A program made the position numbers and the translations under genes. This document shows, piece after piece, positions 36,702 to 64,000 of a stretch of DNA of 64,000 nt. Where the stretch lies: positions 14,353,037-14,417,036 of the forward strand of contig OZ316891.1 in assembly GCA_973895155.1 (NCBI GenBank), read 5' to 3'. Source of the stretch: Marsupella aquatica (taxonomy: Eukaryota; Plantae; Marchantiophyta). The notes under the pieces are model-generated. The model did not search any database. It saw nothing but the letters and a program-made list of their open reading frames with translations, and was not told the origin of the DNA. Position 1 is the stretch's first letter. Every line of letters starts with the position of its first letter.

Positions 36702-36849
36702 GCTTGCCTGTATATTGCCATTTTAACTTTCAGTTCAATTGAATTTATTCCAGAGTAGAATGGTGAGGAAGGCATGCCTGCCTGTATATTGCCATCTTAA
36801 CTTTCAGTTCAATTTAATTTATTCCAGAGTAGAATGGTGAGGAAGGCAT
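36702..36849. repeat. 74-bp tandem duplication just upstream of the dynein start
   Basis: gc(t/c)tgcctgtatattgccat...ccagagtagaatggtgaggaaggcat twice (36702-36775, 36776-36849). Confidence 0.9.
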
Positions 36850-37939
36850 GATGGGTCAATGCAAATGGGATATGAATTGTTTTTACGACGGAGACCGCTC
36901 GACCGCTCTACAAGCACCACCCACTGCGTCGCAGTTCCTGTGTGACTGACTAGCCCACTTCCTTACTATACCATGGCTTTAGTTTACGTTGGTGACTTCC
37001 AGCAGAAGAATGTTTGTTTCTAGTCGGGCGAGACGGGAGAGCTTCGAAAATGTGAGCTTTCTACTCCAGTTGGGAAAGAGAATCGATCCTTCTGCGATAT
37101 GCTCAGCGTGTGGGATCTGCCAGTCTAGGTCATTCCGATCTCAATTCTAGCGATCTATCTTCCAGAAAGCCGGGGATCGTGGAATCAACAACCATCGAAT
37201 TTCGCAAGTGCATGGTGTGCATAAATTAGCCGTAGGATGGAAAGTAATAGCGAAGTGGCAGTCTTGTGCCGGCTGCGAGTGATTGAATGAATTGATGAGG
37301 CAGCAGAAGAACGACATTTTAATGAGGGAGCGAACTTCAATGACAGTGTTTTCTGCGAGACACAGAAACAATCTATCCTCGATGAATGCACGATGGAAGT
37401 ACCATACCTGCAGTCCTCCACTGGACTACATAAAGCTCTGGGGCAGGGGCCAAAGCATGATGGAATTCTTCATCAAGGAACCCAGGAGCTGTAATTTAGT
37501 TGGGATCATCGTGCAGAAACGTATCGTAGTCGAAGTCGCCGACTAAGTATCTTGGCAAGCCATTTACGTCGTAATTAACGAAATCAGTCCTGGATTTTGT
37601 TTTGAGCTGTGTCATCGAATTGTTTCAGAGCAGAGGAAAAAGGTGGGAAAGCTGTGAGTTGAACAGTCTGTCGCTCCCTCTCTCTAGCCCAGCGAGAGGA
37701 CTATAATTCTGGTCTCGTCTCGAATTGGAGTCTGCAGACGAAGCACAGCGACGGAGAACAATACGGAGTACCATGAGATGCGAAACAGCCACTCGCGAGA
37801 TTCTTGCAGATACATTTGGCGGGAGAGTGCCTGACTGCCTTTCATCGTCATTTGTTCGCCTTTTCTCGTATCTTTCAATGGTGTTCACTTTACCGTGTAT
37901 AAGTGCATAATCCAGGAAAGAAGGGCCCCATATGCACTA

Positions 37940-44142: not shown

Positions 44143-46440
44143 CTACCAGTGAAGCCAGTGACTAGCTGATTGCATCAAAGGATGTGACACATAAGCACCG
44201 ATAGTGAATCCGACTATCACGTAATAAGGCAACCTAAGGAATTCCTTGTAATAGTCGGGGGGGAGTTTTTGCCTACCCTCCATAATGGCAGCAAATGGAG
44301 TAACACTGGTGCGGTTTTTCACAACTTCAAATGCTTCTCCGTATTTTGCGGATAGCCTTCGATCACCATGCCACACACCGAATAGGTGATGGGCGGTCAA
44401 TCCTAATGAGGTGATGAGAGTGAAGGAGTTCCCGATCCATAGTGTATGTGCAATGCACCAGAGAACCTGCCCTACCATCTGCGACAATGTCCAATTTTTA
44501 AACTAAATTATGACGAGCAGATGCCAAAACAGATCATCTTCAAGAACTTCGCACCAAGCACACGGTGTACGATACATCGGCTCCAGCCAAATTGTCAAGG
44601 ACAAAATTGCCAATAAATTTGTCGCATGTTCTTATTGACTGTCGTCATCAATGATGAGATCCAGAATATGATTAGTAAATACCTGGGGGTGTCGGGTGAT
44701 TCTCATGATCCCTGTCTCCCACATATGTACTTTAGGCTTGTCCACAGCAGCGACTTCGAGTAGGTTGAATGTAGAAGGATAGAGGAATAGAAAAGAGACG
44801 AAGGACAAAGCCCAGCAGAACTCATGCACGCCAGGAATCGTCCGGAATTGCCAAAGTTGGTACCCGTCATAACGGTGATTGATGAAATAAACCTGTCAGC
44901 ATAAGTTCGTTTAACTTCTGAGATATAATTCTCCTTTTTCAATTGAAAGAAATATCTTCCGCAGAAATGAAAACCCCAAGCAAAATATTTCAGGACTCCC
45001 AACTAAGCTAAAACACGAAGAAAGTTCAAATGATAATGATAACTGATCTGGTTTTTATTTGCAGAAGCAGAGCAGAAGAAGCGCCTATCTAAGAGACGAG
45101 CAGACAGACAGAGCAAAGCAAAGCAAAGCAAAGCAAAGCAAAGCAAAGCTCAGCTCAGCTCAGATTCTGGGTTGAGCATAAATACCACAGCAGAGACTGC
45201 GAGAGGAAGCGATGTTCCGGCAAACAAGACTCGATAAGCCCTCTCTCCGATTAGCTTCTCCCCTGTGGCGCGGAAACCTGCCCCGCCACTATGAACCAGA
45301 GCGAAGATGAACAGTATTTCCATCATTACAACCTTCAACCAATCATGATCTCGAGAGTTAGCAAACATGAGCACCACAACCAACCTGTATTGTGAATCTG
45401 TTATCATCGTCCTTTCAAGATCTTGACTCAGTGACTCAATTATCCATCCCACATTGTATTCTCTCTGGTTCGTTCGGATAAATGACAATTTTGATACAAC
45501 GGGACAATCTGTGATACACACCCACCCGTCAGTCATAGTGCGTGTGGAACAAACGAAGCTCGAGTGCCGGCAAAGAAAGGCATGCATCTCTTACTCTCTC
45601 TCACCTCATGGCTGCTGTTGAGCGAGGTCAATGCATTTATAAATGCCCCTCCGTATCCTGTGTTCGGGTCTAACCAAAGTACGTACAGAATCGCCAAGAC
45701 GACACCAAGGACCAGAGTGAAAGAAATCCAGGATGACGTCTGTTGGTCCACGACATTAAAAACAGCAGCATCTTCACCAACTAGACCGTCATTCTCGTCC
45801 TCCGAAACTATCTGTGGCGTATCTCCTACAGCCGCATTCAACCGTCCAGGTGGTGTACCACTGGTCGAAGATGGAGGGAACAGAGAATCTTTCAACTCCG
45901 ACTCAGACTGCAGCTCTGCTCTCCACAGGCCCACTCGCTGTCTCCTGACCGTCCCAGAACTTATGGAGAAAGAGAAAGCATGATTCAAGCCGCCCGTGCT
46001 GGATATCCGAGACCACTGCCGTGCCAATTCATTCAATGGACCAGTCAAATACAGTAGACGTAGGGCGACAATTCTCATGTCCACAGGCAAAAAACACCAT
46101 AGCGAATTCTACTACTAAACGACCGAGATGAGAAGAGAAAATCCCGGGGAAAAAATCCAGTCCAATCCAATCGAAATGATTGCATGGAAGGGCAACAGTA
46201 GTGCTTTGAATTTCTCACTCGTTGTTGTGACGCCAGTCGAGACGATGGCCAAACATTCTGCCACCTCGAGAATGTCGCAAAGGAAGCAGCCCGTGAGAAT
46301 CCAGAACAAGCAGCTCCGCTTTGCTGATTAAACCCATCTCTAGAGCCCTGTGGTTTCTGCTGCTGCTGCTGCTGCTGCTGCAGCCCAACAACGGAAGAAG
46401 ATCGAGCCGGAGGCAGCACGAGAGACGACACAGCGGCCAT
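44143..46440 (-). CDS. Z-ISO: 15-cis-zeta-carotene isomerase (NnrU family), plastid-targeted
   Basis: [19 protein letters not shown]...[62 protein letters not shown]|[17 protein letters not shown]; Ser-rich transit-peptide-like N-terminus with Q8. First intron boundaries uncertain. Confidence 0.93.
45112..45149. repeat. (AGCAA)n microsatellite in a Z-ISO intron
   Basis: agcaa repeated ~7 times. Confidence 0.9.
46357..46380 (-). repeat. (CAG)8 encoding polyQ in the Z-ISO transit peptide
   Basis: ctg x8 on +; [12 protein letters not shown] on -. Confidence 0.9.
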
Positions 46441-48259: not shown

Positions 48260-48620
48260 CACTAGAAGAATCCGAGGTGAATTGAGACCGCAATATGTGA
48301 CTCATTTTGGCTCATGTGACTTCATTGTGACTCAACGTGACTTGACCCACGCTGTGACCCTTGGAGTTGCAAAAGTTGAGACCAAAAAATGGAAGTCACT
48401 CTTGATACTCGGCTTTGCAACTTGCTTGATACCCATTTGTGACTGATCTATGACTTTATTGTGGAGTCTAGCCTTGTTTCTACGTGACTGCAATATGACT
48501 TTAACGAGTCACATGGTAAGTCATATACATGACTTGCTCGCATTCAACAACGACTAGTGTGTGACCATTTAGTGTCACAGAAGAGACCAATGGAGACCCT
48601 GGCCCGGGTCACACAATAGA
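48260..48620. repeat. CACTA terminal inverted repeat and subterminal repeat region
   Basis: CACTA start, then many TG(T/A)GAC and GTCAC motifs, some as inverted pairs (gtgaccatttagtgtcac; gagaccctggcccgggtcac). Confidence 0.8.
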
Positions 48621-49114: not shown

Positions 49115-52100
49115 TTATGGATCCTCTATGAACTTGCTTGGCCATAATAACAAAGAACCTGTAGCATCTCCAAGTGTCTTTTGAGGAGGATCATCATTTG
49201 TGTTTGGAATGGGATGGACAGCTTTAGGTTTCACTAGTAATGTGACTAACACTACTGAATAACCTGGGGGAATCCTCTTGCCATGGAACGTTGTGGAACC
49301 AACCTGCACTCTGCCAAATCCTACTCGTGTTCCACTCTCATCAACAGCTAACAAGCCACTTTGTCCCTCAGCATTAGGTGCTTTCCCCACTTCCACCTTA
49401 GATCTTTCTGCCAGCACCGTTCTTGGAGGTTTGTATGAAACCTTTGACGTGGCTCTGCTCCCACCAGCAGACTTGCTTCGTGTGCGCATGCTTCCTCTCT
49501 TCATAGTAGTGAAGCTAGGCTCAGTAGGTTCCTCTGTTAGGACTGTCACGGTAGCAGGTTCATCACCTGGGAGTGTCATACCAACTAACTCTTTGGTTGG
49601 TTTTATCTCAACAAGAGGCACACCTGTCATTGAGAATGATACATTCTGCAAATCATTTATCTCAGCAATGGAGTCAAGATCTACATAGCATGAATCTGGC
49701 TCAATGGTATCATTGTCATGCTTGCTGATATCCTCATTTGCCCCAACATTGATATCATCCACTCCCTTGCCAATGTCATCCTCATCCAAACATGGTTGAC
49801 TACCCTCTGTCAAACAAGTTGCTTGTATAGACTGCAACTTTGTTGCCTCTAAATTACAGCGAGTATTTGTCAGGTTCTCATACTTCTTCTCTGCAGCACC
49901 TGCCTTATTCTCTATGGACACAACAACCACAATATATGTTACTGAAAATAACACATTTAACAAACAATGTCAATTCAAACTATACATTTACTAATCATAT
50001 CCCACACAGTTGTAAAGGCCTTACCTTCAAGCCTACATGTCGTTGGCATGCCAGAAGAGTGCATCAACTTTGCCACCTCAAGTGGTGATGGTGGAACTCC
50101 TGCAGAATTGGAATCAATTTTATCTCTCACCGACACAACAGCTTCCATTAATGTCTTGAAGTTCACATGGAACAAGTCAGTCAATGAATTCAAACATTCA
50201 TTGATCTCTAGAAGACATGTTTCGACAGCCTTCAAACGACCACTTATCTCTGTAAGTGAAGATCCACCTCCCTACATGACACAGGGGTATAGGTTCAATC
50301 ACTCCATATGAAATGTTGGGCAATATATGCACAATCAATGTTATATACAGTGTACACCTGAAATTCAACGCAGGTCATTCAATTACCAATCAAAACTCAT
50401 ATAACTTACATGCTTGGAGGATTCAGATGCACCCTCTTGAGCCCGGGTGTTCACAATTTCAGCCCTCAACTCTTCTTTTGAAGGGCTTTGCCCCAATTGG
50501 GCTTTCTGCACATGCATGGCAAACACAAGTTATCATTATTATTCAGGGAACGTACACTAAAAAACAAAGTTTACATGTATGGGTTTACACTATAAACAGT
50601 ACATAGTGTAGCATAAATTACATAGCTAGGCCATTGATTCTTACCAAACGTTTTGCTGTCGGTGCAGTGCCGGTCCTTCCTGTCAGATTAGGGTTCTGAA
50701 CACTCAACCTGGCCTCGGTCATCTATGAACTCTTCTTTTTTGAAGCATCTGTTACAAAATAAGCTACTAACCTTGCCCACACTTTATCATCACAACTGGC
50801 TGGTGGAGGCATATCTGGCTTCTCCCCACCTTCCTTCCAAGCCTTATGCATTCTCCACCTCTCTTGCTTTATGATTTTACCTACTGTACTCTCTAGGTAA
50901 CCTATGTCCATGCCATCATCACTGCCCACATAATTCCATTTGGCAGCAACATTTTCACATACAGTCTTCCAATCTTTTGGATGCTGTTTTTTAAAATTAA
51001 TAACACTCACATCTAACCAACGCAATACTTCAGCTTTCAAATCAGCATGCCATCGGTTCTTACGAGGACACTCAGCATCCACCCATTGTCTCTCATTCAA
51101 CTTTACGTTCCCTTTCTTTGTGACCTCCCCTCGTGCACTGCTCTCGGTAGTACTGGGCGTTGTATTGGCCACCCCTTCATTCACCCTACCTGGGGTTCTG
51201 AAGCCACCTGGGAAAATACAATGCCATTCATTCTTGAGAACTACATACAGCATAATGGATGACGGCAACATTCAATGCTTCACTTCAAGAAAAATTCTTC
51301 AAACATACATACTTGTAGCTCTGTGGAAAGGAGACTTTTGCTGAAACACGACCATAAGAGAAAAATCTGAATCGTTTCAAACTTTTTGAGCAAAAACGAC
51401 GCTTTCTGAAGCGTCTACTTTCCATTTGGCGGTTAACTCACTTCAGTCTAACTAAGGACGCTTTCTGAAGCGTCCCTAGTTACAAAGCCAATAAACCCCA
51501 AGACAGCTGAGGCGTCCATGTGTGCTGCCAACCAGATGCGACCCCCTTAACCACGACGCTTTTTGAGCCGTCCTTCACCGATACCACGGAACAGAAGACG
51601 CTTCCTGAAACGTCTATTCGAACCAGACACCGGACGCTTTAAGACGCTTTCTGAAGCGTCCGCTAACCCCAAAGTCCGATGAGACGCTTTCTGAAGCGTC
51701 CACATGAGAAGTGACGCCTTGACTGTTCGGCCGTGTTCGAAGACAAAGCAGAATCGATGCTTTCTGAAGCGTCCGCCAAGACAGACTCCGCCGCTTTCTG
51801 AAGCGTCCCACCTGAAGGCCGGAAGACGGATGCCGCGACCAAAACACCAAAATCCAATCGACGCTTTCTGAAGCGTCCACTATCTTCCCGACACTTAGAA
51901 ATATTTCTGATTTCCGCACTTTTATAACACTGCACCACTTTTGCCAATTTATTTGAGGCACTTAGAAGTCTCAGAAAAGTCTGAAACTTTACCAGCATAG
52001 AGATTATATGTAGTAGAGTACTCTAGAAAAGTCTCAGCTCATTCCGAGTTTTAGTTTAGAAGTTAAAATTAAATTAAAACCACTGTTTATTAGTTTTACC

Positions 52101-54496
52101 GGAAAACACCGACGCTCTACAAAGCGTCCACTAAGTCTCCAATGCATTTCTTTATTTCTTTTAGGATTGTCTTTTAGATATTTGAGGTTTGAAAAGTCAT
52201 GCCTTTTCAGTTAAGGGAACCTTTACTTATAAAACCTCATGGTTTATCCTTACCAAGGGGGGGACAATTCCAATCAGACTTCTGTTAGTTTCCCTCCTTC
52301 CATTTTAACAAGAGAAGTCTTGTATCGAAGTAAAACTTATGTTTGAATTTATGAATTCAAGAAATTTCTTGATACTTGAATTCAGTTACAAACTTCTGTG
52401 ACTTACATTGAATTCACTGCTAGGCTTGCTTGAAGGGTCAAGATTCGCTAGCTAATTCAAGAGTTGTTGTTTGATATGTGAGAAGTAAAGTTTGGTTCTC
52501 AGAGTATTCAGTACCGTTACTTTGTTTATGGAATATGATTTAGTGTTTGACGGAATTGCGTATCGCTGATGTCAAACCATGTTGCCGGCATCTTAAGTCA
52601 TATCATTACATTTGTAACCAGAGCAGTACTTGCTTAGCAAATTGGAAATTCCTTATCATGCAATTTTATTTAGTCAGGAGAGAAATTAGTGAGTTATGAG
52701 ACTTGTTTTATGTCTATTCTAAGACCATAGTCCTTTTTGAAGGAGTGGCAATAGCTAATCAGAGTTTTCAGACCATAATTGACTCTCTCTTGACTCATAA
52801 GAGAGAAGTTTATTTACTTTGGTGTTTTGTTTATTTGATCTTTTAGTGAGAAACAAGAAATCTATGTACTAAGAGCTTTAGATTACTCAAAGAGATAAAT
52901 TCATTCAATTCTTTCCAAATCTGTTCTTAAAGGGATCGAATTCCAAGTCTTTATGTAAAAAGTGTTCCTTTTTGTTCTTCTGGCTATACGACAAGCTCTG
53001 CCTGTAGATGCCTGTGCAGGGACTGCACTCTGGAATTGTTGTGACCCTGGACCACCTGTCCAGCCTAGTACAGGGGCTGGATGATGTCACTTTCTAGGTA
53101 TGTGGCTGCAAACATATGTACTAAAAACGTAGTACAAACTATAGGAAAACATATGAACATTCACCAACATACCTGGCCCCCTTCCGTGCTACATCTGCAT
53201 AGGGGCATTAGTGAATACTTGAGTTGATGGTTCGACTATCCAACCTGCACACATACATTTTCTATTATTATACATGTGCATAATCCCCCCCACATCAATG
53301 GACTCCACATATAATGAGTTCTTCCATTGCTGACAAGATCAGACATTACCTGCCCCTCTTCCAGCATTTGTAGGTACTGTATTTTGAAATCCTTGCTAAT
53401 TACCTTCACCACCTTCCCAACCTTGTTCATTCCACGACCCACCACCATCCTCCCAACCTGGTTCAATCCATGTCTGTCCTTGTGGACATTGGAACTGATC
53501 ATTACCAGCATTTGCCCAATCAGGTTGGGCAGAATCTGCATGCAATGGCAGGTGGACAGAATTTCATGTTGTCTGAATCCAATACATCCCAAACAATGTC
53601 AAAAATTGATATGCAGTCTGAAATTCAGGATTGCCATCACAAATAACTGGCATATAGATATATACTCACATCCCCATGGTTGAGGTGGACGTCCATACCC
53701 ACGAGACTGTGGGTTTGGACCTGCTCTGCCTCTACCACGGGCATAACCTAGAGCTTGCCCCCTGCCATAGTATTGGGCACCAGCCTGGGATCTACCACTA
53801 CTACCACCTCGCCAACCTTGATCAGAGGTCAGCCCCCCCTGCTGGTATGGTGCATGCATAGGCTTTGCAGGCAAAACAGAACTGGCAGGACGCTGCATCA
53901 CATCACCAACTACAATGTCAGAAACTAAGCAAGGTACATAGGATGTAAAACTGAACATATGAAACCTCTCAACAAGAGTTTTTAACTCTAAACCTAGCTT
54001 GTTGGGAAAACTACTTACCTGTTTCTTTTGGGGCTGCTCTGCAATGTATTCATCTTCATAACCCCCATCCTCATCCATTTCCTCTGGGAAATACTCATCA
54101 TCTGCATCTTCTTGTCTAGTGTCTGCACCCACTTGTGCAGCATCCATGTCATCTCCACATTCTGCCATTGTAGGTACGACCTTCTTGCTCAACCTGTCAC
54201 TCCGACGCACGGGCCCAGAGATAGTGCTGGTCACCCTTCTTGCGTACTCCTTTTGTTTCTTTGAAAAACCTGCTGCTCTACGACATTCCAACATGAGAAT
54301 ACAGTCACAATTTCAGTGCCACATTGAACTATTCATGTCACACAAACTCAGCGGAGGGGTGTAGTTGAGAATCGTTCCCTTACAATTCAGCCACATCCTT
54401 TTCCAGATCCAGTTCTGCAATTTTGACTTTCACGTATGCTTGTTGTTCCATAGCTTTCCTTTCATACTCACACATCTCTGTGTCACTCTGTTCCAT
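49115..54496 (-). pseudogene. CACTA ORF2 / TnpA-like multi-exon gene with premature stops
   Basis: Begins MEQSDTEMCEYERKAME...RRSDRL, then a Gly/Trp-rich region. Exon ~51208-50645 (WARLVAYF...KKKSS*MTEARLSVQNPNLTGR) resembles Ptta/En/Spm Transposase_24. Last exon FHGKRIPPGYSVVLV...HPIP...TLGDATGSLLLWP resembles the Tnp1/En/Spm C-terminal domain. In-frame TAG at ~53397 and ~50724. Confidence 0.75.
51398..52128. repeat. Interspersed array of 18-bp palindrome GACGCTTTCTGAAGCGTC
   Basis: Perfect copies at 51398, 51457, 51643, 51683, 51860; variants at 51555, 51597, 51756, 51790, 52111; degenerate copy ~51502; non-repeating intervening sequence. Confidence 0.95.
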
Positions 54497-54648
54497 CCTA
54501 CTGGACCACAAAAACATGTCATCTATGGTCACCCCGTATAACACAATGCAACCACAATCACCAGGCATCCATCCATACATCTGTGTTGCTTCAGAATTAC
54601 TTTATTACACATCCCCTCACTAATGTCCATGCAAACAATTCACATTAC

Positions 54649-57600
54649 TCATGGCACAGGCACACTGTTGGCATCTGCATCTCTGAATTCGCCTCCTTCA
54701 GCAAATGCATCTACCCTTGTCACAAGAATGAAGTCCCCGCTATCATGAACTATAGGCACTTGGTCTGAACGCCGACGATCAAAGGCACTATGAGAGTGTA
54801 AATGAAACTCAAGGTTTGATCCTTCCATCCGACGTTGCCTGGCCTGTTTATGACACACTACACGCCAACCTGGGAAGTCTTCCACATCCAGGAAAAAAAC
54901 TTGCTCCACCTGACTGGGAAACACAAATGGCTCAGATCATTCTGGCAATTTCCCTCTTAAATTGGCCAGCAAGAAACCGTCGTTGTCTCTCTTCATGGTA
55001 GCCCTATTACCAAGCCAATCATGCCGCACCCATGAACCTTTCATAAGAATCATAGGACTGGACACCGCCCCATAATCCAGAGCCCATATGTCAACTAATT
55101 CTCCCACATATCCCATCTCCATCCAAGCCTTATCGTGATTGTGGCTCTGTTGCTCAAATACAGTGATGAGCCCACAGTCATTTGTCACCCTGTAGGCACT
55201 GTCACCATCCTTCACTCGAAAGTGATTCCCATATGCTCTCATCCATTTGTAAGTCTTCACTTTCAGGCTAGGGGCATTAGACAGTAGGTAAACGTCTGCA
55301 TCCATGTCTGGGTGGGTCTCGTGATGCTCTCTAATTGCCACTCTAATCCACTCCATGAAACCTGGAAAAGTTGTTCCTGCAGTGGGATGGGTCGCCTTGA
55401 ATGACTCATACTCCCTGAATAAACAACCACACAGCATTAGCTTGGGTAAATATGAACAGGCTGAAGGAGAAAATCACACGCACACAACATTTAAGCTCAT
55501 GAACTGGATTATAGCACATGTATGCACTCAGTGTATCCAGGGTTCCATCACCACAGTGTTGTGCAATACAAAGTCATGTGCCAAGTCTCTCATAGATGTG
55601 GTCAGGTTCTTTGTGGTTGCAGCCTCTTCCAGTACTTCACCTATCACCCCTTCCTCCTCATCAGAATTCCACACCCTGGTCTTCACATGCTCATATTGTG
55701 CTATGTATTTGGTCAGAAATCCCAGAGTCTCATCCTTGATGTAACCTTTAGCCATGCTTGCTTCAAGTTTGTAATATGTTCTCACGTGACCTTTGAGTAG
55801 CTTCATGTACCGTTCCAAAGGGTACAACCAACGAGCACTCACAGGCCCAAATTGGTGTAGCTCTTCCACAACATGGACAAGTAGATGGGTCATGACATCA
55901 AAAAATGCGGGAGGAAAATAAATCTCCAGGTCACACAGCACCTGAGCGACATCTTCTGTCAGTTGTGGGAAGTGTGTTTCATCCCAAACCTTCACACAAA
56001 TACGACGAAACACAACACTAAGTTGCATGATCACATTACGAATAGGCTTCTACAACAGGCCCCTCAGACATAAAGGCAACACCTGTTGCATCAACATATG
56101 GTAGTCATGGCTTTTCATACTACCAAGCTTTCTAGTCATGATATGCTTCTTGAAAGCACTGCCATAGTTTGAAGGAACCTTCAAAGAACTCAACCTCTGC
56201 ACAAATAGTTGCCACTCTGTGTTTGTCAGAACATAGGGCGCTTGGTACTTCAAGAGCACATCAGCTCTGTGGGCATGTGGCCTCAACCAAAGATGGGGTT
56301 TCATTCCCCTCTGTTCAAGATCCAATCTCACTGAACCAGTGTCTTTCTCTCCACACAAGAATCTGAGTAGACTCTCACAAATATTCTTCTCAATGTGCAT
56401 AACATCAATGTTATGTTTGCTTGGCTCAAACTCCTGCACCGTTGCAATGCAAAAGCGTCAGCAAATACCTCAAGTTTAGTCTCTCTCTTCGAAATGAATG
56501 CACATGCTCTGAACCAAAATATGTATCCCAATTAGCATCAACTCCAAGAGGCTTACCCTCCAATACTTGAGCTCCAAGTCCAATATGCTCAGTCTTTTTA
56601 CACCATATCGCTTTATTGGATCACTCACTCCATCTTCCCTGCCCCCTCGTTTGATGTAGTCATCCCTCAGTGCTCCCCACTGCCTGATCTCCTCTTTGGT
56701 CACTCGTGCCGGGGGTCCACGTTGCTCAATCTCATTGCCAAAGCTCGGGGGGTTGACTATCAAAAATCTTAGGAACCACGTGCGATCCAAAATAGGTGAT
56801 TTTCATAGAGATTAATTACAATTTTAAAAAGCGTAGGAAGCAAAGGAAGGTATTATAAACCCATATTTGTAGAATATTCTCTAATATATACCTTTTATAA
56901 AATAATATAGATCATTAATATTAAGAATAGAGAGTATTTTTGGAATATTCCCGTTATAAAATAGGCGTGTTTATATTAGGCTAGGATTGCACGTGGTACC
57001 CCAAAATATATACTAAGTTAACTCCCTGAGTGCCAAAGTGTGCAATTAGTGCTTGTCTTTCTCTGTAAGGGTGATCTGCCTTCAAAAAATGACGATGGCC
57101 CATGTATATCACTTTCTGCAGGGCTCTGGAGTACTCACTGGTGACATTGCGCCCACAGATAGTACAAGCACAATATCCTTTTGTTGTTTGGCCTGATATC
57201 ATCCCATGGGCTGGGTAGTCAGCTATAGTCAGAATGATGATGGCTCTAAGGATGAATGGGTTTAACCTCCCAAGCCTCTGTAGGACATCATATGTGAGGA
57301 CTCCTTCCTCCCAAAGCTTGCTCAATTCCTCCACTAGGGGAGCCAAAAACACATCTATGTTGGCAGATACAACACTGTCTGGCCCTGGTATCAGTAGGAC
57401 CATCAGAACAAAAAATTGCTTTGTAGTCATCCAAGGAGGAAGGTTATAATTCAAAATAGTTACAGGCCAACACAAAAATTTGTTGTTCTTGTCTCCAAAT
57501 GGGTTTACCCCATCCAATGACAGCCCAAGTCTGACATTCCTCGGCTCAGCAGCAAATTTGGGATACATTTCATCTATGAGTTTCCATTGCCTTGAATCTG

Positions 57601-58700
57601 CGGCATGTCGTTGTAGCCCATCATCACTTTTCTTGTCAGTTGCCCAAGTCATCATCTCCGAGATGGCACGGCTTCTGAACATCCGCTGAAGTCTGGGAAT
57701 GAGTGGAAAATGACGAAGTACCTTGGCGGGAACCATAGACTTTCCTGAGTTCCGATACCTGTGCTTCCCACACTTAGGGCATGTCAACGATTCTGCATAC
57801 TCCTTTCTGAAAAGAACATGCCCATCAGGACAGGCATGGATCGAATCATAGTTCAATCCAAGATTAGATATGCATCTTTTTGCCTCGTACATGTTCTTGG
57901 GCAAAATATTACCATCTGGTAGCACAGTTGTTCGCAAGAATGCCAACAACTCAGAAACCAAAACATTGGGGACATTGTGGTTGCCGCAAATATTCAGGAA
58001 CATGATGACAAATCCCAGTTTAGAACATTTGCTACCGAGGTACAAAGACTTCCTGCCTTCCTGTATTTGCAGGGGAGAGCCAAACATCCCATCATGCCCA
58101 GGGGTTTCCTGCCCTATCTCAAACTCATCAAGAGGCTCTTCGATAGGGGGCACACTTGCATCTGCAGCCGTATCCTCTTCGTTGTCCAGCCCATCATGAA
58201 ATGCATCCAAGTCTTGGAAGATGTCTCTCACCATCTCTTCCACATGAATTCCTTCGTCATGTGGTGTTGCCTGAGCACCATCCCGTTGGAGAGCTGACAA
58301 CCCACAGAGACCAGCTACAACATTTTCAAAGGCAGAACCTCACTTGCCCGTCTTGCAGCATTGGCAGCATCAAATTCTAACCTCCACTCCTCGTCGGAAG
58401 AATCTTCCTCTGTAGGATCATTCCAAACTCGATGTTGTGGATCTCTTCCATGAACCGCGATATGCCGCCAAACCTCATTCAGACCCCTGGTACGGGATCC
58501 TTGGTAGATTGCACAAGGACATCTCATCCTACTGGCTCCTGAAAGTCTGGTTTGTAACCTTTCACGCTGCCAAAGCTTATTATCATGGCGTGATATCCTT
58601 GCACGGGATGATGCAAAGGCAATGCCTGTGCCCTGGGCTGGGTCTGGGGAGGGTGGTGACCAGGGTGCATTGTAACAGGTTGGGAGCTCTACAGTCATGG
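54649..58700 (-). pseudogene. CACTA TnpD transposase (Transpos_assoc, Transposase_21, DUF4218, DUF4216), disrupted
   Basis: MRCPCAI...RHIAVHG; IHACPDGHVLF; KVLRHFPLIPRLQRMF; EPRNVRLGLSLDGVNPF; NYNLPPW; DYPAHG; YMGHRHFL; IDVMHIEKNICES; MKSHDYH; FPPAFFDVMTHLLVH; WLYPLERYM; EPFVFPSQVEQVFF. MITE insertion plus in-frame stops at ~56051, ~55529, ~54938. Confidence 0.93.
56744..57030. mobile_element. 287-bp MITE with 8-bp TSD nested in TnpD (hAT- or Mutator-like)
   Basis: TSD TGCCAAAG at 56736-56743 and 57031-57038. Imperfect ~45-bp TIRs: CTCGGGGGGTTGACT...CCACGTGCGATCC vs reverse complement CTCAGGGAGTTAACT...CCACGTGCAATCC. Removing it restores the reading IAHFGNEIEQ. Confidence 0.9.
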
Positions 58701-58999
58701 ACAGCAGTGAACAAGGATGCCTAATGGTGGTATTTGTGTTCCATATATCCCTGACTGTATCTGCCAAAAGAGTTAACATAACGTGTACTAAATTCTCACA
58801 AACCCTAAACCACCCCAAAAGAAAAAAACAGGTTCGCGAGTAGTGTACCTATTGTCAAGTGAATGACACAAAATTCCTAAATGTTGGAGGGTGTCACCAC
58901 CTCCTCCGCTGTCCTCAAATGTACCGCCTCTGCATGTACACCCATTACCATATCAGAGTCCAATCATGTATAGTCACAGGCACACGTGTGAGAGCGGTA

Positions 59000-59440
59000 T
59001 CACATATCTCACCTTATTACCAGGTGAGATATGGGTACCAACCCTGTTCTCGATGCCACTCAGACCTCAGGTACTCAGGCATGTACATTAAATCATCAAG
59101 GTCTAAACCCTGCTCATGCCATGGGGTCTTGCATCCATGCCTACAAGCAGTGGATGCAATGCCCTCCACTGGGGGCAAGTTGCTACCAAGTCCCTCCACC
59201 GTGTATTAATTTGTCTATATTTGCAGATATCTTGTGCACAGGACACCACAAGAACCCTCGGCCATACATGTGAAAGAACTATATCATCTGCCAAATCAGA
59301 CAACAAGGAACCACCTACAACATCGGGCTTGTCTAACTCATCTGCTGAAAAGTAGATGTCCACTTTGGACTGTGCATCCTCATTCACGATAGATTCAACG
59401 TCTCTTGCATCCTCAGGCGGTGCCAAGAAATGTTTTAGCA
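59000..59440 (-). pseudogene. F-box-domain protein (TE-associated), C-terminal part decayed
   Basis: SLLSDLADDIVLSHVWPRVLVVSCAQDICKYRQINTRWRDLV fits the F-box consensus L..LP.DI...I...L....L.....V.K.W..L. Confidence 0.65.
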
Positions 59441-59740
59441 CCAACCCATGCAGGAGAGTCCTAACTGTGGCCAGCCATATGGCAACCCGAAGGAGGAGCT
59501 GTAATAGCGCTTGTTGATCTAGGAAAGGCAACATACCCACCAAAGTCTGTCGCCTAGATTTGAGCCCACCCAGTACGTTTACAGTGACATCCCAAGGCAG
59601 CAGGAAACAATAATCCGCCAACATTAAAATAAGCCCAACTGCCACCAACCATAACAAGGTACATTAGTTCAAAGATCACATTTATTTCAATGATCTTATT
59701 TATACAAAAAAACTTGTGTCCAAACTGATGCTACTACTCC

Positions 59741-60617
59741 TCACTCTGATTCAGAATCGCTAATGACCCATTCCTCACTTGTTGTCTCATAGTCCTCTCT
59801 GTAAGGATCCTGACCCTTCCGTGGCCAGGCCTCAAAAAGATCATAGTCCATTGGGTTTTGACGCTTCCCAGCTGCTTCTGATTCCACAAGCCAAGCATAT
59901 GAAACCACAAACACATTATGGGACATGACATAAAAGTGAATGTCTCCCTTCCCAAACTTGCGGCAGGCTTTGGGATATGACTTAGTAATGACATGAGTGG
60001 TGTCCTCTGTTATATTCTCCTCCACTGTCCCACCTAGGTCAAGCACTGTGGACTTGTACACTTTGCACTTAACCTCTCCAATTCCCGCCTCCATAAATAC
60101 CATGCTCAGCCCTTTCAGAATGGGGGTTGGTTGCTTCGTCTCCTCAACCAACATACTCTTCAGCCTTGTAGAGCTCTGTCCTTTGTTGAGTACAGGTCCA
60201 TATTGGAGATCAGCAAGCCGTGCCTTTGCTTCCCAGACTTCTTGTTCAGCCCAAGCTGATGTAGTAGCTTCTTCATCCTCCCACAACTCATATTGCTTAG
60301 TATCCTATACAATCTTATGTGCTATGGAATCTGTGATCCAAGGCCTCAACTACTTTTAGGCCTTGCTTAGTAATTGCAGAATTCATGTAGGACCATGACC
60401 ACTTCTTTATCACTAATAGCCATGTCCCTGTAACAACATGTGTAGTCTCTGGAGTGATGTCCTGAACGACAATGCCATGGAGCTCAAAGAATCGTTTCTG
60501 TACAGTTGGCCAATGTACTTTGGTCAACCCATGCTGGCCATGGACCAAAATCGCTCTGACCCCTGTAAACTCTGATGGGTGGTCACACTTTCTACGTTTC
60601 CCAGGCTCCATGTACAC
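59741..60617 (-). pseudogene. Tandem BRCT-domain protein (Pol lambda/TdT-type BRCT), one frameshift and one stop
   Basis: BRCT1: FTGVRAILV...HGIVVQDITPETTHVV..., frameshift ~60346, PWITDSIAHKIV*DTKQYEL. BRCT2: LKGLSMVFMEAG...LGGTVEENITEDTTHVIT...KFGK...VVSYAWLVESEAAGKRQNPMDYDL. Confidence 0.8.
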
Positions 60618-61203
60618 ACACCCTACGTGATGACAGTGAATTTTGGAAGAATGGGTTCACTTGACAATACAAGGACAACAAAATTCCTACTTTTTGAGTT
60701 GATCTGGCCCACTAGTGCTCAGGTCCGATTTTGATAGGTACAAGGGATATGTGAACAATACGTACTAGGCACTTGCACGTATGCAGGATATTGTTTGAAT
60801 ATATACTACAAAATCCATATCGAAGGTGAAATGAAGTGCAACCAACTTGTCATGGCACATACATATTTTGTTGTAAAGGAGGATACATTCAATGACAAAC
60901 TTATAGGGCAATTTGATTAATTGCATGCTTGATAATTTATACGCTTACAACTTAGAAGTCCTATTTTAATTTAGCAGTCTGATGAAAATGTTTATGAAAA
61001 TGACCACTCAGCCTAAATACTTCCAAGAAGGCTTGTAAGGATAAGTTTTTATAGGCATGTACCCAGCCACTGACGCCAGAGCACAAGATAAGTGCTGCCT
61101 ATATAAACTCGCCTACCCAACTCCTTTTCAAAATTGGAATCTCTACAATCTCAAAAAATAGTACATCCACATCAGGTGCACTGTGCATGTACAATGTTTA
61201 GCT

Positions 61204-61887
61204 TCACAGCCAAGATATGTGATCTCTCACAGGAGTGCGCAAGGTAGGATCAAGGGCATGGCGATGACAATAAAATATCCATCGATCAACACCATGTGCA
61301 GAGTGATCATAGATTTCTCTGTCACAAGCATAACCCTCTGCTTGACGATCTTTCAGGCAATGATAGTGCCACGTGGGACACCGAGCACAGTGGACTATGT
61401 CAGTCCAGTAGTCATCATCATGCTCACCACATGCCTTGCACCTATGAAGTGGGCAAGCTGTGGCATGAGCAGGCAAACACTCAAAATAGAAAAATCTCAC
61501 ACAAAAACGGTCTGGACATTTCCTAACATTTGCTGCAGCATCAACAGAGCCCTCATAGGACCCCAACTTCCCACACTGTGCATACTTAGCCTGCTTCTCC
61601 AAACAATCAGTGCACATCCAGTCTCCCTGGTGTGTTGACGGGAGGCCCACCCCTGGACAGTTGTTTTCTGCAGCAAGGTCAGACTCCGGGTTGAGGTGGA
61701 AATGCCTCATGCAAGGGCCCTCACAAATGACCAGGCCCCCACCATCGTCACAAATGGCACAACAATGAGCTACCTTCTGGAAAATCTGACTTGCAGAGAA
61801 GTTAGTAGCATCTGCCCCAAGTACACCTGTGTTTCTCACCTCTGTCACACGCTTTTTGGCTTGAATTTTAGCTAGGTCGTGCCATGC
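61204..61887 (-). CDS. EDM2-like triple PHD-finger module (last exon of a TE-associated gene; upstream exon appears decayed)
   Basis: CAICDDGGGLVICEGPCMRHFH...WMCTDC...CGKLGS...CPLHRCKAC...CARCP...IFYCHRHALDPTLRTPVRDHI parallels Arabidopsis EDM2 as recalled (CAICDNGG..CEGSCLRSFH, CPLHKC, TPVRDH). Splice acceptor at 61889/61888. Confidence 0.8.
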   Translation of the reverse strand, partial: AWHDLAKIQAKKRVTEVRNTGVLGADATNFSASQIFQKVAHCCAICDDGGGLVICEGPCMRHFHLNPESDLAAENNCPGVGLPSTHQGDWMCTDCLEKQAKYAQCGKLGSYEGSVDAAANVRKCPDRFCVRFFYFECLPAHATACPLHRCKACGEHDDDYWTDIVHCARCPTWHYHCLKDRQAEGYACDREIYDHSAHGVDRWIFYCHRHALDPTLRTPVRDHISWL

Positions 61888-61896
61888 CTGCGCATG

Positions 61897-62040
61897 AGAT
61901 AGACTCTACAATTTAGCAGACTGCGCAGAAAGTAAAATATATTTAGCATTTAAGGTACAAAGGCATTTAGATAGACTCTACAATTTAGCAGACTGCACAG
62001 AAAGTAAAATATATTTAGCATTTAAGGTACAAAGGCATTT
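61897..62040. repeat. 72-bp tandem duplication in the intron before the PHD exon
   Basis: agatagactctacaatttagcagactgc(g/a)cagaaag...aggcattt twice (61897-61968, 61969-62040), 1 mismatch. Confidence 0.95.
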
Positions 62041-62654
62041 GCTACTGCAATGAATTGGAATGGCCACACAAGGATGCAGAGCACACATACTTTTGGTATG
62101 TTGAGCCCACACACAAAACTGATCCCCTAATACAATTTCTCCACCAACACCTCAATTTTAATTGTGGCTATGATTCACCAAAGGAGATCTGCAACAACAT
62201 TTCATGCATTTGAATCACATACAATAGTCGTGACATGTAAAACAGGCATTCTTCGAAGAGGATTGGTATGAAGCAGTGTCATAAGGGTTGAAATTTATAC
62301 ATCCTAAATAGGCTATGATAGTGGCTGAGACAAATAAGTGAGGCATAAATCACATTTTGCAGGTTATCACATGGCCCATTAATTCATTCAACGTGGCAAT
62401 GTTCACCAGGTTAAAGCAATATTAAAGCAGTCTTTCAATAGAGACTTTTAAGCGAGTTTGCTAGCCTCCTAAATTAGGATATTTTGCTTAGTGCAGGCAT
62501 AATAGGATAAGTTATGTACTGTTGACCCTAAACCCTGGACCCAAAATTGCTTATACATCAAAATTTTAAGTAAATATCCTCTGTGTTGAAGGCAGAGTGT
62601 TAAGCTATAGGTCAATGGTATCTGGTCTATGCATGTGGTGTGACAAGTGGTCCT

Positions 62655-63104
62655 CTAGAGCATGTGATCCAAACATGTGTAGACACCAAAGCCACCAGTG
62701 GTGGGGTCTGGGAGGGCAGGACAAGTGACATCACCAGGCACACTGCAGGATGGCGAGTGGTTCCAGATGATACATTGTGCTCTGTGCAAAAATCGGCATC
62801 CAAGAGAACGGTCATCCAATTTTGGGCCAGAAGCCCTACAGGTAGGACAGTTATATTGGCAACTATGCACACACCCTTGGCACCTAATTTGTGGCGGGTC
62901 ATGTACAAGAGACACAAATACCAAGGATGTCGGGAAGGGTACTGAAGCAGGTAGAGGCCGGCTATAGTTGTTCCTGGAAACAACAGGGTACTCAAAGTAC
63001 CATGCAGACTGGGCTGGAAGGATCCCAAGTCTGACATACTCAAGGTACAACATCTCTGCCTTGCATGCAAGCCGCACATGTTCAGCGTTGCGGGTCCTCA
63101 CCAT
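62655..63104 (-). CDS. Cys-rich hypothetical protein, 149 aa (TE-associated)
   Basis: ATG-initiated ORF with CQGCVHSCQYNCPTC...CRFLHRAQC; co-oriented with the other genes; no family recognised. Confidence 0.45.
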   Translation of the reverse strand: MVRTRNAEHVRLACKAEMLYLEYVRLGILPAQSAWYFEYPVVSRNNYSRPLPASVPFPTSLVFVSLVHDPPQIRCQGCVHSCQYNCPTCRASGPKLDDRSLGCRFLHRAQCIIWNHSPSCSVPGDVTCPALPDPTTGGFGVYTCLDHML

Positions 63105-63405
63105 AAGTGTTGCTTTCGTTGTGACGTCCTCTATTCACGTCCTTTGATGAGCAAGGCGAGCAGGAGGTTGACTTGCCTCACCAACAACAACCAACCTAAA
63201 CTAATCAGTTCCCACTCACTGTCTTGGTTCCAACTACAGGTCATAGTATACACATAGCATGAAACGTGCATAGTACATATTTGATTCTGAGTTTATGAGT
63301 TTCCTAAGACAAAGAGCTTGGTGATAAACCCATGTTCTCAACGGACATGTATATCAATCATATTAAAATCCTATTTTTTCATCCAGAAAGACCGAAAGTC
63401 TCACC

Positions 63406-64000
63406 TTGCAGGTTGCAGCAGAGAGAAAATTCATTGGCTATCGTGTTGTGCAAGTGAACCTCCACTGATGCCCCCGGTGTAGCCCCTCAGATGCAGGTGA
63501 CACTTAGCAACTCCCAAGTTGCCTGGTCTAACAGAAAATGCTTATATCTTCAGAATTTTATAGAGCAAGTACATGATCACATGGCATTGGCCCTACCAAA
63601 CTGTACGTTCACCTGATTGAATGGAGAAGCATTGCTCATTGGGGTGAATACACTAGCAGTACTCGATGGCCCAGTTGAAGGCAAAAGAGACTACAATATT
63701 TAGAAAGAGTCAACTCTACACTTGGTTCATACAATACTTCTGGAACTATTCATATTTGGCCTTATGGAACTCTTGCCAACTACAACTCCTACTATGCACA
63801 AGCTCACATCAACAGAGAAAGGATACAGAATGCATACTTACTATGGCTCTAAGCACCTTCACTACCTTGTTGAACCCAGTCCTGAAGTCTTTTCAGCACG
63901 TTTGCTGTGCTGTCTCCTTTGGCACCAAACACCTTAGTCCTTGATGTAACAGAATGCGATTTTACAAGTTAGATGCTTTGGAACCTTCTATGGTCTTAGC
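63406..64000 (-). pseudogene. Decayed multi-exon gene of unknown function
   Basis: Splice-flanked segments read AFNWAIEYC*CIHPNEQCFSIQS|DQATWELLSVTCI*GATPGHQWRFTCTTR*PMNFLSAATCK|, with TAG/TGA stops compatible with C>T changes. Confidence 0.35.

Follow-up and report, generated by a model that had tools for sequence, protein, structure and literature searches.

The element and its surroundings

We describe here a TnpA-like gene with a predicted GW-rich N-terminal region in Marsupella aquatica. The window, by which we mean the whole 64,000-nucleotide stretch of DNA that was analysed (contig OZ316891.1, positions 14,353,037 to 14,417,036), contains a CACTA element on the minus strand, running from about 58850 down to 48260 and comprising, in that order, a stop-broken TnpD gene, a second gene behind TnpD and a CACTA end at 48260. 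The decayed TnpD transposase gene (54649..58848, minus strand) contains several stops and matches PF02992 (E 6.5e-66), PF13960 (E 5e-28) and, weakly, PF13963; a TnpD carrying PF02992 and PF13960 identifies the element as CACTA (En/Spm). A search with TnpD returned 292 homologs at E<=0.001, with 33-48% identity among the 120 matches listed. The 3′ end of the element (48260..48620, plus strand) consists of the CACTA terminus at 48260 and clustered subterminal GTGAC(T) repeats. The motif cluster lies at 48270-48620, and 7 of 41 GTGACT sites fall in one 500-bp bin. The terminus at 48260 is the only one found; a partner 5′ CACTA end was not found within the 64-kb window.

The second gene is split in its predicted exon D by a 1.67-kb insertion (51322..52993, no strand assigned) with TG...CA ends and a 5-bp target duplication, which we take to be similar to a solo LTR. 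Contigs of public sequencing run X1 leave the window at 52994 into letters matching the insertion's far side, and so represent the empty site. A partly palindromic repeat of 24 nt occurs ten times in the insertion (51397-52133), and the insertion is itself repeated in the sequencing runs. Given three in-frame stops, the insertion in exon D and the broken TnpD, the copy in the window is dead.

The element is flanked by a many-exon dynein heavy chain gene (about 4860-32300; PF08393, PF17852, PF12775 and PF18199) and an NnrU-family gene (44143-46110), both on the minus strand. These genes suggest a land plant whose sperm are flagellate. Minus-strand ORFs 5′ of TnpD (59100-63150) include NSD-like PHD fingers (61204-61905, E 7e-5), BRCT domains (59741-60304, E 5e-8; 60315-60656, weak), a Cys-rich ORF (62655-63134) and a stretch that by eye we take to be F-box-like (59103-59663). 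With no 5′ end of the element found in the window, these ORFs may be chromatin-reader cargo of a very large CACTA element. Near-perfect two-copy tandem duplications are present at 61897-62040 (72 nt), 36705-36850 (74 nt) and 1375-1483 (54 nt).

Gene model

Nine exons are predicted for the gene behind TnpD, all on the minus strand. They join in one frame of about 800 codons from an ATG to the C-terminal domain, with three in-frame TAGs. The first coding exon (54019..54168) is an acidic open frame with a putative start codon and the donor GTAAGT; P0126, a homolog from the liverwort Calypogeia, likewise begins with an acidic tract. Exon A (53670..53892) is rich in G, R, P, Q and Y, contains RG and YG dipeptides, one GW and one WG, and is open in one of three frames. 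The predicted phase-1 GT-AG intron that follows (53536..53669) has a strong donor, GTGAGT after a T that is the last exon base (53670), and a strong acceptor, TGCAG before the first exon base (53535). These are the signals expected for the 53670-to-53535, phase-1 join proposed in the initial annotation, and three indels found in other copies of the family (53636, 53638 and 53658) fall inside the intron. Joined in this way, the reading from 53820 to the TAG at 53398 comprises 97 residues, 24 of them Gly, with the 7 Trp and 4 GW/WG that had been reported. The annotation was also right that the frame of the second exon is absent from the list of ORFs of at least 80 aa, which holds only another frame at 53236-53598.

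Exon B (53350..53535, 186 nt) is predicted to encode a Tyr-free tract rich in G, W, N, Q and E, with an AGO-hook-like core, five Trp and one decayed Trp codon. Two further phase-1 mini-exons are predicted. Exon C (53173..53244, 72 nt, phase 1-1) starts with GW and has an in-frame TAG at 53191; exon D (52994..53064, 75 nt together with 51313-51316) also starts with GW and duplicates the second half of exon B. The GW of each would be completed by the splice junction. With these additions, the four GW/WG of the tract first noted become six in the predicted N-terminal region, all before the likely DNA-binding core. That core, predicted to be helical, is encoded by exon E (50645..51207), which has an in-frame TAG at 50725. 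Exons F-H (49115..50505) are predicted to supply a helical linker and a C-terminal DUF8039-like barrel domain. Exons B, C and D each have a length that is a multiple of three. The frame is fixed at both ends because exon A has one open frame and exon E carries the Pfam-related core.

Variation among family copies

Contigs of four public runs were placed on 52500-55000 (1823, 913, 105 and 24 contigs). Diverged contigs are numerous, which points to a large repeat family; the depths should not be read as copy numbers. The initial annotation had ended the protein at the TAG at 53396..53398 (minus strand). This stop is real in the window's copy, but it is a Trp codon (TGG) in the family, where the protein does not end there. 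At 53397, the differing letter, all covering depth differs from the window in X1, X2 and X5 (16, 4 and 3 contigs, 23 in all), which represent three studies and three coded organisms; X6 has no cover at this position. With TGG as the family codon, exon B continues to the donor at 53350. The codon at 53398 is thus fixed as Trp in the family, and no other Trp codon is altered among the 40 of 232 substitution rows listed.

Differences among copies concentrate in the predicted introns. Within 52994-54168, the rows listed place 14 substitutions in 473 intron bases vs 6 in 702 exon bases (P=0.007), and 6 of the 8 indel rows listed are intronic; these counts rest on a selected subset of 40 of 232 substitution rows and 12 of 27 indel rows. 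A one-base deletion in a G run of exon A occurs in a minority of copies, at about 11% of depth in X1, 10% in X2 and 40% in X5. No clean splice was found among the 11 listed joints of contigs on 52500-55000, and a search of public sequencing runs for this sequence listed no RNA run. We regard the segment as probably genuine coding DNA that belongs to a CACTA TnpA-like gene, with exon B very probably coding. The TAG of exon C does not appear among the family differences listed, and exon C may be skipped or dying across the family. In X5 and X6, depth rises about a hundredfold or more at 54852-54935, in the TnpD 3′ end (region 54768-54935), which suggests a short stretch common to another, commoner repeat.

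The core, the C-terminus and their homologs

An exhaustive protein search with the exon E core returned 51 homologs. Word-based protein searches with the core found none among 241 candidates and none among 6384 proteins of 1127-3215 aa, which is the wrong length range. For PF03004 (Transposase_24), 17 of the 37 alignment members match, with P0126 and P0139 above the cut-off and the window's exon E below it (E 0.0016); the profile also matches the angiosperm PF03004 carriers P0064, P0110 and P0104. The structural model of exon E (pLDDT 89.8) has two groups of three helices, a predicted fold consistent with the tandem tri-helical DNA-binding domain reported for TnpA. Foldseek found no structure at E<=0.001 for the core model. 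Gallate decarboxylase, the sole PDB sequence match, was weak (E 0.003) and was rejected. The window's C-terminal exon has no direct Pfam match; a profile of four C-termini reached E<1e-3 with four PF26133 carriers among 120 proteins and with none other. In an atlas search, the C-terminal domain gave no informative lead; P0126 gave leads of 0.87-0.90 to PF03004/PF26133 clusters.

The gene thus combines a Transposase_24-type helical core with a DUF8039-like C-terminal barrel behind a decayed TnpD, and its designation as TnpA-like is sound. By sequence comparison, both the core and the barrel are homologous to the TnpA-like domains of angiosperms (En/Spm TnpA; PF03004, PF26133). The position as a separate gene, head-to-tail behind TnpD, is that of Arabidopsis SPM2/5/6/9 as described in PMC13547354. 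The same pairing of core and barrel occurs at 49115-51207 in the window and in P0126, P0132, P0139 and P0165.

The named relatives are in the liverworts Calypogeia fissa, Riccia sorocarpa and R. fluitans. The locus number of the R. sorocarpa homolog, R1sor_012643, adjoins that of a TnpD match, R1sor_012644. Searches of prokaryote genomes gave 600 pattern matches, none of which was confirmed. Four loci in metagenome contigs with 20-residue matches had no DNA match to the window and were rejected as chance.

The homolog N-termini were compared in a set of 16, left from 24 rows after removal of 8 near-duplicates, with those having fewer than 60 residues before the core excluded. GW/WG is absent from 10 of the 16, occurs once in 4 and twice in 2, the maximum; the 7 named gene models have 0, 0, 0, 1, 1, 1 and 2. 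Many of these N-termini are probably truncated gene calls. They are of low complexity, some containing Trp, some Tyr and some neither, and the contexts vary. The N-terminus of P0126 is Tyr/Phe-rich and that of P0138 is Q/G-rich without Trp, while P0158 has four Trp and no GW and aligns to the window tract (P=0.005, one of 16 tests). The distantly related TnpA-like protein P0188 (447 aa, from Logan) has a long N-terminal tract of its own, with 7 Trp, 2 GW, 14 Tyr and 6 RG. BLASTP of exon B against P0126 and P0188 gave no significant match. A five-residue Trp word across the predicted 53670-to-53535 junction recurs in an R. fluitans model (P ~0.04, post hoc) and lends the junction weak support.

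Composition and origin of the tract

The WG/GW-domain scoring proposed in the initial annotation was carried out with the dos score, re-implemented from Table 1 of Karlowski 2010 (PMC2910046), for which the published cut-off is 6.99 half-bits. The score of exon B is 23.8 half-bits after trimming, 14.7 when extension tails are included and 31.9 when the stop is read through with X. It is the best of 229 six-frame WG/GW domain candidates in the window and exceeds all 190 fetched TnpD and TnpA-like proteins, the next best being P0188 at 19.6. In 2000 local dinucleotide shuffles the score had P=0.001, and it was attained in 1 of 60 shuffles of the whole window. Trimming is needed for the remaining three GW sites to exceed the cut-off. 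Exon B is far below the reference values of NRPE1 (170.3) and SPT5L (585.8), and its scoring stretch of 20-38 aa does not reach the Arabidopsis domain sizes of 92-654 aa, a range that is observed and not a rule of the method. Its residue frequencies are near the AGO-hook reference for W, G, N and Y (0.08, 0.21, 0.10 and 0 vs 0.06, 0.21, 0.08 and 0.00, respectively) and off for S and Q.

Of the two exons that the initial annotation had joined in one AGO-hook-like segment, exon B therefore has the best such composition in the window, but exon A scores negative. At a mean of -0.15 per residue on the AGO-hook matrix, exon A is a tract of another kind, consistent with the RNA-binding alternative that the annotation had raised for the RG repeats, of which the predicted N-terminal region has eight. 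Pfam has no match in exon A or B.

Trp is enriched in the 97-aa reading (7 of 97; binomial P 3e-4 vs a 1.3% background, 0.011 vs 2.5%). Trp count alone is not unique, since at least 5 Trp occur in 82 of 19,802 open 45-codon windows. Adjacency of W and G is not above the level set by composition, either in the 97 aa (4 observed vs 3.46 expected, P=0.47) or over the longer tract (6 vs 3.87 expected, P=0.17).

An unbiased repeat search identified four GW sites as copies of one 22-nt unit, with 77-86% identity around the retained GW. Two of the four lie in a 36-nt tandem unit at 53408-53465 in exon B; a fifth, weaker copy at 63852 was taken as chance. At the DNA level, exon D aligns with exon B (score 54 vs 34.4+-3.9, 0 of 1000 shuffles; repeat family D3), and exon C resembles exon D (P=0.007) but not, significantly, exon B (P=0.34). 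With four GW sites from one unit and half of exon B copied in exon D, the tract evidently grew by repeat and exon duplication, and for the same reasons the GW motifs are not independent.

Exon B is also acidic and aromatic, its best 39-aa tile having a charge of -8 and 6 residues of W, F, Y or L. Under the rule for acidic activation domains of Staller (eq. 1: a 39-aa tile, charge <=-9, W+F+Y+L >=7), which was derived from human factors and leaves many domains undetected, 0 of 241 tiles pass, and exon B falls short by one charge and one aromatic. Exon A, rich in R, G, Y and P, may resemble RGG/YG low-complexity tails, and exon B, acidic with exposed aromatics, resembles acidic-aromatic activation domains except for that shortfall.

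The feature first described is real, non-random and correctly seen, and it is somewhat larger than initially reported and lies on a dead copy of a large family.

Interpretation

We tentatively favor reading the tract as a lineage-specific, Trp-studded effector tail, predicted to be disordered and generally sticky, on a TnpA-like protein. Duplication of a short GW-containing unit would have built the tail, and the TnpA core would bind the subterminal repeats at the element ends and display the tail there, with its RG/YG-rich part first and its acidic, Trp-rich part after it. The tail could then gather host chromatin or transcription factors or nucleic acid, or condense, and so keep the ends active. 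In bioRxiv 10.64898/2026.08.24.746577, Arabidopsis TnpA is described as binding clustered end motifs, activating transcription and needing ROS1/DML2/DML3, and its DNA-binding domain as flanked by disordered linkers and exon junctions. The sticky tail finds support in this transcriptional activation, in the acidic and aromatic character of exon B and in the homolog N-termini, which are likewise of low complexity with scattered aromatics in varied contexts. Against a generic tail stand the composition of exon B, whose nearness to the AGO-hook reference such a tail does not require, the centering of the duplicated unit on GW every time, and the failure of every tile under the acidic rule.

The second reading, a true Argonaute hook, is doubtful. 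Bound at the element ends, TnpA would offer at least six GW/WG along with other Trp motifs and capture an AGO4-class protein, thereby competing with Pol V (NRPE1) and SPT5L and blunting RNA-directed DNA methylation of the element. The rank of exon B among the 229 six-frame domains and above the 190 fetched proteins favors this, as does the junction-spanning Trp word shared with R. fluitans. So does growth by repeats, which resembles that of the NRPE1 platform, itself thought to expand by repeat duplication (PMC4476159). The same source reports NRPE1 with WG/GW regions and AGO4 orthologs in a liverwort, moss and ferns, and in PMC2904775 a viral suppressor binds AGO1 with three WG/GW motifs sufficing. 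Conversely, W-G adjacency stays at the level of composition, the score and the length of the scoring stretch are far short of NRPE1 and SPT5L, GW/WG is missing from most homolog N-termini, and exon B lacks a BLASTP match to P0126 and P0188. The method itself, according to PMC2910046, gives false positives with Gly-rich tracts and six-frame translations and has many glycine-rich proteins among its matches, and the known anti-silencing route of TnpA goes via DNA demethylases (bioRxiv 10.64898/2026.08.24.746577). The fuller scenario, in which a high-copy CACTA family of a seed-free plant evolved its own Argonaute hook on TnpA, mimicking the Pol V/SPT5L platform and decoying AGO4 at the element ends, seems to us rather improbable.

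Comparison with known hooks is mixed. Like the NRPE1 and SPT5L/KTF1 platforms, the tract is rich in G, W and N, poor in Tyr, Leu and Ile, and made of degenerate tandem repeats holding GW. Unlike them, it has 6 motifs vs 19 in Arabidopsis NRPE1 and >40 in SPT5L and scores 24-32 vs 170 and 586; it is also low in Ser, high in Gln, N-terminal and spread over small predicted exons. The viral suppressor SPMMV P1 is likewise encoded by a parasite and has a few WG/GW motifs, which lie in the N-terminal half of the protein. Unlike the present protein, which belongs to a DNA transposon, is presumably nuclear and is known from sequence, P1 binds AGO1 and blocks RISC (PMC2904775).

It is unlikely that the tract is a neutral flexible linker, enlarged through slippage and duplication of exons, in which GW recurs only because the one ancestral unit chanced to include it. 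The descent of four GW sites from one DNA unit, the copying of half of exon B in exon D and the homologs without the tract speak for it, and G-rich DNA easily gives TGG: another frame of exon B holds 6 Trp, and at least 5 Trp arise with P=0.13 in shuffles. Against it, Trp codons are easily lost, as in the window's copy, yet the Trp at 53398 is kept in all covering family contigs, and the units have diverged around a retained GW.

A wrong splice model, with exon B in the other, Trp-free open frame, skipped or untranslated, is very unlikely: that frame stays open across 53236-53598, exon B, being symmetric, could be skipped in frame, and the exon C TAG is absent among the family differences listed, but with the splice sites found the Trp-free frame cannot be joined to both the exon A frame and the core's phase-1 acceptor, the lone stop that interrupts the Trp frame is replaced by a sense codon in the family, and family differences concentrate in predicted introns.

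Significance

The gene differs from En/Spm TnpA in its N-terminal GW-repeat tract, which is absent from most homologs, and in coming from a plant with axonemal-type dynein, with its named relatives in liverworts. The mechanism by which TnpA lifts silencing is just beginning to emerge, and the route demonstrated is through DNA demethylases. If the hook reading is true, an Argonaute-binding TnpA would be a second, direct transposon route to disarm small-RNA-guided methylation, and it would suggest an arms race driven by mimicry as the reason why the NRPE1 hook turns over so fast. In the literature searched, counter-silencing by an Argonaute decoy has so far been described for viruses, not for transposons. 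No transposon-encoded AGO hook was found in the open-access literature, and the terms "argonaute" and "AGO4" are absent from the main text of the 2026 TnpA work (bioRxiv 10.64898/2026.08.24.746577 and PMC13547354). TnpA-like proteins and domains are called restricted to flowering plants in bioRxiv 10.64898/2026.08.24.746577 and in PMC13547354. Even if the hook reading fails, full-architecture TnpA-like genes exist outside flowering plants.
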